From sequence record PP174317.1: a DNA stretch of 64,000 bases. One strand, 5' to 3'. Within the stretch, counting starts at the first letter, position 1, and every line of letters begins with the position of its first letter. Shown one piece after another: positions 25,285 through 26,783 of the stretch. The position numbers were made by a program, and so were the translations under genes. Origin of the DNA: Acinetobacter phage vB_AbaSt_W16. The notes under the pieces were generated by a model. The model was not told the origin of the DNA. It saw only the letters and a program-made list of their open reading frames with translations, and did no database searches.

Positions 25285-25524
25285 TCATTTCTTCTCCTTG
25301 TATGATTGATACAATCGATATGGCGTCATGAGACCAATAAGTAAATAAATTAGTAGATATACTAATGAAGAAAATAGCAATCCTATAACTGGCATTTGAC
25401 CAATAAAATCGGTTTTGTTTGGACCGAATTTATGATCATGATGACCTTCATTAACGTATCGATTCCAACTAAATGTACCTTTCAAATTTGTCTTAACAAT
25501 TTTAATTAACTTTTTCATTTCCAT
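25285..25524 (-). CDS. small membrane protein
   Basis: 79 aa with a C-terminal TM helix (VIGLLFSSLVYLLIYLLIGL). Confidence 0.4.
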   Translation of the reverse strand: MEMKKLIKIVKTNLKGTFSWNRYVNEGHHDHKFGPNKTDFIGQMPVIGLLFSSLVYLLIYLLIGLMTPYRLYQSYKEKK

Positions 25525-26783
25525 AACTCCAAATATTTGGTTTCTAAATCTTCTGGCACAAAGAAATGGCTTGCAAAAAATGCGTCCATACCTGTGACAA
25601 GATTTCGATCTTCACGAATAGACATACCACATGCTTTGTCACCAATAATCCATGAGCCAATGATCGGATAATATCCATCGTGCGGTTGAATTTCATGCCA
25701 TTGTTGGTACATATAGCCCCAATGATCATATTCAGGTACTTTGTGAGAACCCGGAGCCAAATGACTAAGCTCTTCGCCAGAACAAAAATGCGAACGATAG
25801 ATGTTTGAACCTTCGCGGCCATGAATTGCTTTCTTAGCATATTGACCCGATTTTGGATGATGATTCCCATCAAAACTCGCCAATAAATTAGGGTGATTAG
25901 GGAACATTTCCCATAACTTAATAAGCATTGCTTTGTTTGAAAGCAGCATTTTCCATGCGGGTTCCATCCAACGAGTGTTAGTACAGTCAAGAATGTCAGA
26001 ACCAAATTTCTCTTCAGTCATCCATTCCCAAGGATAAAGTTTAAAACAATTTTTGATCTCTTGGTCTTGAAGATCGATAAACGATTTAGTTTCAGGGCCT
26101 GTGCCAATACGTTCTTTCAAAAGACCAATATCTTGCATTTGCAATTCTTTAACAGATAAACCAGCACGAAGTGCAGAATCCATCAAATAAACTAAATTAC
26201 CAAAGTCTTCATGACGGAATCCACCGCTTGATGCAAAATGAACTAATTCGCCTGGTTTAAATCGTTCCTGCCAAACTTCTTGAAGAGTTTCATCAATAAG
26301 ATTATATTGAATACGCAGATCATCTGGATAATCACGACCGTCTGGTAATTTTTGCATACTTTCAATATAATTCCATTGTGCTACAGAACATTCAAGAATT
26401 GAAACTGGAGTGTCGCCATTATACTCAAACATTTTTAATGAGTCATCAGAGCCAAAAGCAAGATCGAAACGTCCATATAATGATTTATCACCACGATTCC
26501 AAGATTGTTCAATTAAAGGAATCGAATTTTCATCCAAATTGAAGTACTCAGGATAATCACCAGATTTGATCATTTGTTCTACCATTGCATAAGACATATC
26601 GTGTAAGTCTTGTGATGCAGCTTGAATACGGTCAATTTCACTTTCTGACATTCCATATACAACGCCTTCTTGCCAATATGGTGCAGCATCAGGTCCAGAA
26701 GGGGCATTCCAATAATTGAAGCCAATTCCCTCTAAAAGTTCAATGTGATTAGGACGGATTTCGAAATTGCTATGGCGTTTCAT
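25515..26783 (-). CDS. glutathionylspermidine synthase-family ATP-grasp ligase (YgiC/YjfC-like)
   Basis: 422 aa; [85 protein letters not shown] and [23 protein letters not shown] are colinear with E. coli YgiC/GspS synthetase-domain motifs. Confidence 0.8.
   Translation of the reverse strand: [422 protein letters not shown]

Follow-up and report, generated by a model that had tools for sequence, protein, structure and literature searches.

A stretch of 64,000 nucleotides from Acinetobacter phage vB_AbaSt_W16 (record PP174317.1; hereafter the window, numbered from its first letter) encodes an ATP-grasp ligase of the glutathionylspermidine synthetase family that is linked to a lipoprotein gene, and the same linkage recurs in other phages and in bacteria. 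The ligase gene lies on the minus strand at 25515..26783 and the lipoprotein gene lies two genes upstream on the same strand at 27162..27683. From a comparison of gene neighborhoods and protein tails, the two proteins very probably form a functionally coupled module. The specific role that we favor, at a confidence slightly below an even chance, is that the ligase would amidate the C-terminal carboxylate of the lipoprotein with a polyamine before or during export.

The ligase open reading frame (ORF) runs from ATG to stop and encodes 422 amino acids. Its ends coincide exactly with those given in a first-pass annotation made from the sequence alone, and all four peptide strings quoted there lie within it. 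The assignment of the protein to the YgiC/YjfC/GspS synthetase family in that annotation was borne out by a match to Pfam PF03738 (GSP_synth) that passes the gathering threshold across the full domain (E=3.7e-107, 359.2 bits against a cut-off of 29.3; ligase residues 17-407, profile positions 5-370 of 371). The protein also matches phrog_6215 (E=1.3e-153), and scores of this size lie well outside what coincidence would give. In a phmmer search of solved structures the best match was E. coli YgiC (7uk8, E=1.7e-68), aligned colinearly and over its full length (ligase residues 10-409, chain residues 17-393), followed by YjfC (7uk6, E=2.9e-55) and the L. major trypanothione synthetase (2vob, E=4.8e-35); E. 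coli GspS (2io7) scored E=1.2e-12. Identity is 39% to YgiC, about 34% to YjfC and 25% to the synthetase domain of GspS (Gss). Pfam found no CHAP amidase domain and no second domain of any kind, homology begins at approximately residue 10, and no signal peptide was detected. The NCBIfam equivalog model for Gss (NF007801) gave 90.6 bits against a cut-off of 882 and covered residues 264-398 only. The comparison with YgiC, YjfC and GspS that had been proposed for assigning the subgroup therefore places the ligase with the YgiC/YjfC type and not with the Gss type.

Over positions 24000-29600 the sequence shares 99.9% identity with Acinetobacter phage ZZ1 (NC_018087.3; Straboviridae, Twarogvirinae, Zedzedvirus), which confirms that the gene is encoded by the phage. 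The ligase ORF corresponds to ZZ1p0008 and is set in the leftward-transcribed, hyperplastic early region extending from rIIA to rnlB/gp39. The ligase gene itself is already known from GenBank, RefSeq and PHROGs and, as a member of a known family, is not out of the ordinary.

Catalytic residues were mapped through a phmmer alignment to the L. major trypanothione synthetase (LmTryS), with residue roles taken from PMC3581523. R105 of the ligase corresponds to LmTryS R328, which contacts the gamma-phosphate and the carboxylate; D107, E120 and N122 correspond to D330, E344 and N346, the ligands of two Mg ions; E131 and E192/D193 correspond to E355 and E407/E408, which bind the polyamine amine; K284 and K318 correspond to K513 and K548, which bind the ATP phosphates; and R390 corresponds to the essential C-terminal arginine R613. 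All mapped positions are kept in the ligase, one-to-one with LmTryS. In an alignment of 10 homologues all of them are invariant with the exception of E192 and N122, which are invariant in a 4-sequence alignment. Because every catalytic residue is conserved, the ligase does not have the features of a pseudo-enzyme, a possibility that the first-pass annotation had raised. As judged from the sequence, it is virtually certain that the protein is a genuine and catalytically competent member of the GSP_synth family of the YgiC/YjfC type. It is a stand-alone ATP-grasp enzyme of the peptide-polyamine ligase type, cytoplasmic given the lack of a signal peptide and the need for ATP, and its position in the tree described below makes it an orthologue of neither YgiC nor YjfC.

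In GspS and TryS the glycyl carboxylate of glutathione is phosphorylated and then amidated with a polyamine (PMC3581523). The view that substrates of the YgiC subgroup are unknown, which the first-pass annotation had expressed, is outdated: according to papers that cite Pederick 2023, YgiC and YjfC have peptide-spermidine ligase activity in vitro, and it is the physiological substrate that is still unknown. RefSeq names both enzymes "peptide--spermidine ligase".

The partner lipoprotein (minus strand, 173 amino acids) has a lipobox signal peptide (…VLAGC; LAGC), a Met/Gly-rich segment and the C-terminal tail SRGGFGGAVSSGG-COOH. Its N-terminus reads MKLKKSIVMLMVPAFVLAGC, so that both a lipoprotein signal and an RGGFG...G tail are present. 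The codons of the conserved tail, R162-G173, occupy 27165..27200 on the minus strand and were read directly as RGGFGGAVSSGG, followed by the stop codon; a synthetic peptide of the tail would be, for example, AVSRSTSTSRGGFGGAVSSGG. The protein falls below the threshold of Pfam DUF1190 (PF06693; 18.2 bits against a cut-off of 22, E=0.0032). BLASTP aligns it with YgiB end to end at E=1e-4, and hhalign of the phage partner family against a set of bona fide DUF1190 proteins gives 98.4% probability (E=1e-14) for a match limited to the C-terminal half (partner residues 92-172, YgiB 119-206). These alignments indicate that the partner is related to YgiB/DUF1190 through its C-terminal half. The DUF1190 alignment contains the invariant cysteines C53, C64, C88 and C97, and the lipobox cysteine is the only cysteine in the partner. 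A partner of the ZZ1 type is present in 51 Acinetobacter phage records.

To evaluate the pairing, we sampled 80 viral and 80 bacterial loci encoding relatives of the ligase, of which 77 and 79 were evaluable; the bacterial loci were drawn from among the matches listed, and a species missing from those matches does not thereby lack the gene. The tail was scored as the motif [RKYH]GG[FYW][GSTA] within the last 45 residues of an ORF. An ORF with this motif adjoins the ligase gene in at least 56 of the 77 viral loci, directly upstream on the same strand in 48 and just downstream in 8, and lies directly upstream in at least 62 of the 79 bacterial loci. The remaining ORFs of these loci rarely have the motif, with 1 of 6518 in the viral and 5 of 6813 in the bacterial set (6 of about 13,300). 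The pairing counts are lower bounds, as the expression missed variant tails such as RGGFK…SGG in Haemophilus, RQGFG…FGG in Rhizobium and KGAVFG in locus L075. The two E. coli ligase genes follow the same pattern (ygiB-ygiC and yjfM-yjfC), each directly preceded by a DUF1190 gene. The upstream lipoprotein is also found on the A. larvae chromosome and on two metagenomic contigs. Among other phages the partners score against DUF1190 at E=5e-31 (Aeromonas LAh_9), E=3.5e-21 (Aeromonas phage 31), E=5e-4 (Motura) and E=0.02 (phiRSL1). The linkage of ligase and lipoprotein is thus very strong and is conserved in phages and bacteria.

A further 138 phage records encode a YgiB-like lipoprotein without a ligase. 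Most of these are large phages that infect Klebsiella, Erwinia, Cronobacter, Serratia, Citrobacter and related hosts. Four of them were read (Moon, KNP2, Deimos-Minion and RaK2), and in all four the RGGFG tail is intact and ends in GG. The enterobacterial hosts of such phages encode YgiC and YjfC, and the lipoproteins of the ligase-less phages may be substrates of one or the other.

The partners have in common only the lipobox and a C-terminal …[VI][S/A/T]RGGFG… element, with unrelated middles and total lengths of 77-665 amino acids. Across 103 unique tails, the R, G, G, F and G of the motif are each 98-100% invariant. The number of residues after the motif is 7-14 in 96 of the 103 tails (median 10), and this stretch comprises 30% Gly, 29% Ser and 10% Ala with 1.2% Asp plus Glu. 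The tails end most often in Gly (53), followed by Ser (37) and Ala (9), and Gly occupies the penultimate position in 76. This anatomy suggests that the tail presents a sole carboxylate, usually glycyl, at a fixed short distance from a docking-like motif. Such a tail would be expected of a substrate, since relatives of the ligase amidate the glycyl carboxylate of glutathione and its closest characterized relatives act on peptide C-termini.

A neighbor-joining tree of the ligases, built without bootstrap support, sets all stand-alone enzymes far from GspS and groups E. coli YgiC and YjfC in a clade of their own. The clade of the phage ligase contains the Acinetobacter T4-like phages Kimel, Acj61, Acj9 and Ac42, two giant uncultured contigs, and the A. 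larvae chromosome, whose ligase is 52% identical to that of the phage; other Acinetobacter chromosomes and Haemophilus are next nearest. The ligases of different phage lineages fall in separate clades, near bacteria related to their hosts and each with a partner. This pattern points to selection on the pair, and the pair appears to have been acquired independently by different phage lineages.

The genes that surround the pair vary among these lineages. In Motura a homospermidine-synthase-like gene with saccharopine dehydrogenase domains and a gene for a substrate-binding protein lie directly upstream of the pair (L007:779-2089), and this phage may supply its own polyamine. In LAh_9 an Ion_trans_2 K+-channel-like gene directly precedes the DUF1190-ligase pair, and a gene for a PagP-like lipid A acyltransferase lies nearby (L008:1576-1950, L008:1-313); the K+-channel arrangement resembles a PspA-associated bacterial operon known from the literature. 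The Aravind-lab PSP paper describes bacterial operons in which the ligase occurs with a K+ channel, DUF350, DUF2491 and PspA; there the operon association is noted and DUF1190 is called a metal-chelating lipoprotein.

Under the mechanism that we favor, the ligase would recognize the RGGFG motif in the lipoprotein tail and, with ATP and Mg, would phosphorylate the free C-terminal (Gly) carboxylate approximately 10 residues beyond the motif. The carboxylate would then be amidated with a polyamine, in Acinetobacter most likely 1,3-diaminopropane. This genus forms 1,3-diaminopropane, and spermidine, putrescine and cadaverine are not among its products (PMC10267138); spermidine could still be taken up from the medium. 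Modification would take place before or during export of the lipoprotein, which would then act with its cationic tail in the cell envelope during infection. Among the substrates suggested by the first-pass annotation, a protein C-terminus is therefore retained and narrowed to that of the partner lipoprotein; the accompanying view of the enzyme as acting alone overlooked the conserved partner. Amides of spermidine with a protein C-terminal Gly-Gly are known in eukaryotes for SUMO and ubiquitin, where the amide arises by another chemistry. In E. coli and in A. baumannii, each ligase paralogue has a partner of its own, which fits a reading of the tail as substrate.

The envelope part of this mechanism draws on what is known of YgiB, which is regulated by Cpx and is needed for growth under pH and peroxide stress in Citrobacter rodentium. 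YgiB also accumulates in a mutant of the tail-specific protease and is tied to growth defects of tolC mutants. It is plausible, if speculative, that the phage lipoprotein encoded near rIIA acts on envelope integrity or exclusion in infection.

Several points weigh against this mechanism. The step that makes the tail a substrate comes from comparative genomics only. The ligase would act in the cytoplasm and its partner carries a lipoprotein signal peptide, so modification must precede or accompany Sec export, which would be unusual; YgiB has moreover been detected in the proteomes of outer membrane vesicles. A transmembrane helix that would leave the tail in the cytoplasm was considered and rejected: Kyte-Doolittle profiles of the partner and of YgiB rise above threshold at the signal peptide only and show no convincing transmembrane helix, and the topological difficulty stands for this reason. 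In its N-terminal half the partner does not resemble DUF1190, and the four cysteines conserved in that family are missing. Some ligase loci are unpaired, such as that of Ac42, in which inspection revealed no adjacent partner; this phage keeps the ligase and the DUF7230 peptide (described below), and three paralogous soluble proteins (Ac42p007 to p009; locus positions 2097-3504) replace the SMR gene, the partner gene and the 94-amino-acid gene. Finally, the presence of a ligase in the host leaves the phage copy unexplained; cognate specificity and supply after host shut-off are possible reasons.

An alternative that avoids the conflict between cytoplasm and periplasm is that the ligase makes a soluble conjugate of a polyamine with a small molecule or short peptide, for buffering, redox protection or signaling. 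The lipoprotein would then be a periplasmic binder or sensor and not the substrate, and the product or the polyamine would be exported by a transporter encoded beside it. A gene for such a transporter, an SMR-family small membrane protein of 113 amino acids, lies at 27691..28032 on the minus strand, 7 nucleotides upstream of the partner gene (Pfam Multi_Drug_Res, PF00893; E=1.7e-13, 51.3 bits against a threshold of 23.7). No NCBIfam subfamily model reaches its cut-off with this protein, and those for Qac, EmrE and MdtI score about equally (QacE 37.9 against 185, MdtI 48.6 against 103), so that the deposited name 'QacE' is over-specific. The protein is best described as an SMR transporter without an assigned specificity, and its score against the spermidine exporter MdtI, about as good as those against Qac and EmrE, would be compatible with an exporter of the MdtI/J type. 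The SMR, partner and ligase genes occur in this order also in Acj9, Acj61, Kimel and the two giant contigs (loci L011, L014, L015, L017 and L018), which is compatible with a transport role; the association is nevertheless specific to this clade and comprises 5 of about 160 loci. The in vitro activity of YgiC and YjfC on short peptides, as reported by the citing papers, is also in keeping with a soluble product, as are the homospermidine synthase and substrate-binding protein next to the Motura pair and the bacterial operons noted above, which suggest membrane or polyamine homeostasis. What a soluble conjugate leaves unexplained is why the sole invariant part of the partner should be a tail that is free of acidic residues, constant in length and terminated by Gly, Ser or Ala, and why the lipoprotein should occur alone in enterobacterial phages. 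Overall, we regard this alternative as rather unlikely.

It is improbable, if somewhat less easily dismissed than the readings that follow, that the ligase attaches polyamines to the C-termini of other host or phage proteins (ribosomal, DNA-binding, membrane, or the products of coupled genes) as part of host takeover. Activity in vitro covers peptide C-termini generally, according to the same citing papers, and two small genes are tightly coupled to the ligase. The first of these, p79 (25285..25524, minus strand), encodes 79 amino acids with a C-terminal transmembrane helix and has a start codon that overlaps the ligase stop codon; its product could tether something to the inner membrane. A 77-amino-acid ORF of DLP1 (ADLP1_004) occupies the position of p79 and resembles it in size and position only, and no homologue of p79 was found in Kimel. 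The second, p41 (25163..25288, minus strand), has a start codon overlapping the p79 stop codon and encodes a highly basic DUF7230 protein of 41 amino acids (Pfam E=6.3e-13); a resemblance to ArfA noted by eye was rejected on the basis of this match. A p41 gene directly follows the ligase gene in Acj9, Acj61, Ac42 and Kimel (phmmer; loci L014, L015, L016 and L018), and so always in these Acinetobacter phages, including Ac42 with its ligase and p41 but without an adjacent partner. However, p79 ends in ...YKEKK and p41 in ...HLNED, which are unlike the conserved tail, and both genes are confined to Acinetobacter phages whereas the pairing of ligase and tail spans bacteria and phages.

The record for ZZ1p0008 carries the product name "glutathionylspermidine synthase", and the first-pass annotation had likewise proposed glutathione and spermidine as possible substrates. 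That the ligase is a true glutathionylspermidine synthetase (Gss, EC 6.3.1.8) acting in redox defense is very improbable, although the Pfam family name, the deposited annotation and the conserved acidic polyamine-binding residues agree with it. The equivalog model is matched far below its cut-off and over a short segment, the GspS match (E=1e-12) is far weaker than that to YgiC, and the amidase domain is absent. The glutathione-contacting positions of EcGspS are S335, S337 and C338, and the aligned ligase residues differ (T125, V127 and S128). As reported in a paper citing Sui 2012, YgiC and YjfC lack glutathionylspermidine synthetase activity. Glutathione with spermidine is thus an unlikely pair of substrates for an enzyme of this subgroup in Acinetobacter, which has neither spermidine nor putrescine of its own making. 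Given the literature on YgiC and YjfC and the polyamine content of Acinetobacter, the deposited name is questionable with respect to the acid as well as the amine, and is probably wrong for this gene.

By tblastn the ligase gene is present in 124 of 50,697 phage records, comprising 56 of Acinetobacter, 42 of Aeromonas and a few each of Pseudomonas, Bacillus, Ralstonia, Achromobacter, Ochrobactrum and Sinorhizobium. It was not found in T4, in enterobacterial T4-like phages or in any coliphage among these records, and is therefore not a core gene of all T4-like phages, which the first-pass annotation had named as an outcome that would refute its interpretation. A Pfam hit for the gene of an Aeromonas phage was already on record in 2006. 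We also considered that the phage supplies a ligase that its host lacks, and ruled this out, as A. baumannii has a ligase and lipoprotein pair of its own; the sequence cluster of the A. baumannii ligase has 1,923 members and the gene is thus widespread in the species. A passenger gene recently captured from the host, with no role in infection, would suit a hyperplastic early region (rIIA-rnlB) and a host with its own copy, but is hardly credible for an enzyme that is 42% identical to the host ligase, is kept together with its partner at 65-95% identity among phages from A. baumannii, A. pittii and A. johnsonii, and has all of its catalytic residues intact.

The remaining genes and signals of the region add detail to the module. 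Upstream of the SMR gene, p118 (phrog_21305; 28029..28385, minus strand) encodes 118 amino acids and ends in a stop codon that overlaps the start of the SMR gene (ATGA). Between partner and ligase, at 26846..27130 on the minus strand, lies a gene for a signal-anchored protein of 94 amino acids with two cysteines (phrog_20143, E=7.9e-47), for which Pfam gave no hit. This protein is kept at the same position in Acinetobacter T4-like phages (phmmer; loci L014, L015, L017 and L018), with two copies in Acj61, and is named 'membrane-bound inhibitor of lysozyme' in several Lazarusvirus records. A GC-rich hairpin with a UUCG loop and a U-rich tail (27141..27156, minus strand; a consensus match only) separates the partner stop codon from the ribosome-binding site and start of the 94-amino-acid gene, and may be a partial terminator or an RNA stabilizer. 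The 62-nucleotide gap upstream of the ligase contains a weak sigma-70-like promoter match, TTTACA-17-TAAAAT, with 10 of 12 positions (26813..26841, minus strand). Promoter-like sites are not enriched in the region (21 found against 28±6 in shuffled sequences), and the operon boundaries rest on gene spacing only for that reason.

The seven proteins of the module gave no PADLOC hits, and a link to defense or anti-defense was rejected on this basis. Over the part that the window covers, the annotation of the ZZ1 record includes no gene of polyamine biosynthesis. A role in DNA hypermodification of the polyamine type found no support, since neither a ligase nor an ATP-grasp or GSP_synth enzyme appears in the published account of diaminopropyl-thymine in an A. 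baumannii phage. Compared with NC_018087.3 the window is a circular permutation, with position 21535 corresponding to record position 1 (the end of rIIA), and its positions 1..21534 correspond to the end of that record and contain rIIB, ndd, motA, asiA, a holin gene and the tail fiber genes gp34-37.

Amidation of the lipoprotein tail may extend well beyond this phage. A broader proposal, which we consider possible with less confidence than the mechanism itself, is that YgiBC and YjfMC represent a widespread bacterial system in which the C-terminal glycine of an exported lipoprotein would be amidated (here with 1,3-diaminopropane) under guidance of the RGGFG motif, and that large lytic phages have repeatedly taken up this system, presumably for remodeling or protection of the envelope during infection. 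Some phages carry both genes, and those with the lipoprotein only would rely on the ligase of the host. Taken alone, the ligase gene is a modest and already annotated auxiliary gene; its value is in the conserved ligase-lipoprotein module as a lead to a substrate. For the YgiC/YjfC type, the chemistry in vitro is known from the reports cited above and the physiological substrate is not, and the near-universal pairing and the anatomy of the tail jointly single out one candidate. The YgiB-type lipoproteins have envelope-stress phenotypes and their molecular function is not known. If the tail is indeed the substrate, this would define a new protein modification and would explain the presence of a YgiB-like lipoprotein in more than 100 large phages infecting, among others, Klebsiella, Erwinia and Cronobacter. 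Dozens of Acinetobacter phages that are candidates for therapy carry the names "glutathionylspermidine synthase" or "...synthetase/amidase", which are probably wrong.

Among known systems, the E. coli pairs YgiB-YgiC and YjfM-YjfC (7UK8, 7UK6) resemble the phage module in enzyme family, length class, catalytic residues and lack of an amidase (33-39% identity), and in a lipoprotein gene upstream of the ligase gene whose product has a lipobox and an RGGFG...GG-COOH tail. Unlike these pairs, the phage ligase belongs to an Acinetobacter-associated clade, and the N-terminal half of its partner is unrelated and without the four cysteines. The phage module is also interleaved with the 94-amino-acid, SMR, p79 and p41 genes, is carried by a phage in its early region, and operates in a host whose polyamine is 1,3-diaminopropane. 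The A. baumannii chromosomal pair (L178:4614-6161) is like that of the phage in that the ligase gene (P0143) lies directly downstream of a gene for a lipoprotein, of 121 amino acids, ending in ...PIRGGFGRSGFSFGG. The A. baumannii partner is short and contains cysteine, whereas that of the phage is Met/Gly-rich with no Cys motif; the ligases differ to the extent given above, and in the locus shown a gene for a TerC-family membrane protein, not an SMR gene, is immediately upstream.

The Aeromonas T4-like phages (44RR2.8t ORF093c, phage 31), phiRSL1 and Motura also carry a ligase with an upstream lipoprotein of the DUF1190 type. Their ligases are 31-38% identical to the one described here and belong to other clades, probably through independent acquisition, and the neighboring genes differ (SPFH in phage 31, a K+ channel in LAh_9, homospermidine synthase in Motura). 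Gss (2IO7) and trypanothione synthetase (2VOB) have the fold family, the class of acyl-phosphate chemistry and the Mg, ATP and amine ligands in common with the phage ligase, which differs from Gss in the missing CHAP amidase, the 25% identity, the failure to match the equivalog model and the residues at the presumed glutathione contacts. Enzymes of the RimK and tubulin-tyrosine-ligase type are ATP-grasp enzymes that act on protein C-termini; they add amino acids and involve no exported lipoprotein. The spermidine conjugates of SUMO and ubiquitin arise by E1/E2 thioester chemistry and likewise involve no exported lipoprotein, but they provide a case in which a Gly-Gly carboxylate is amidated with a polyamine, as proposed here for the lipoprotein tail.

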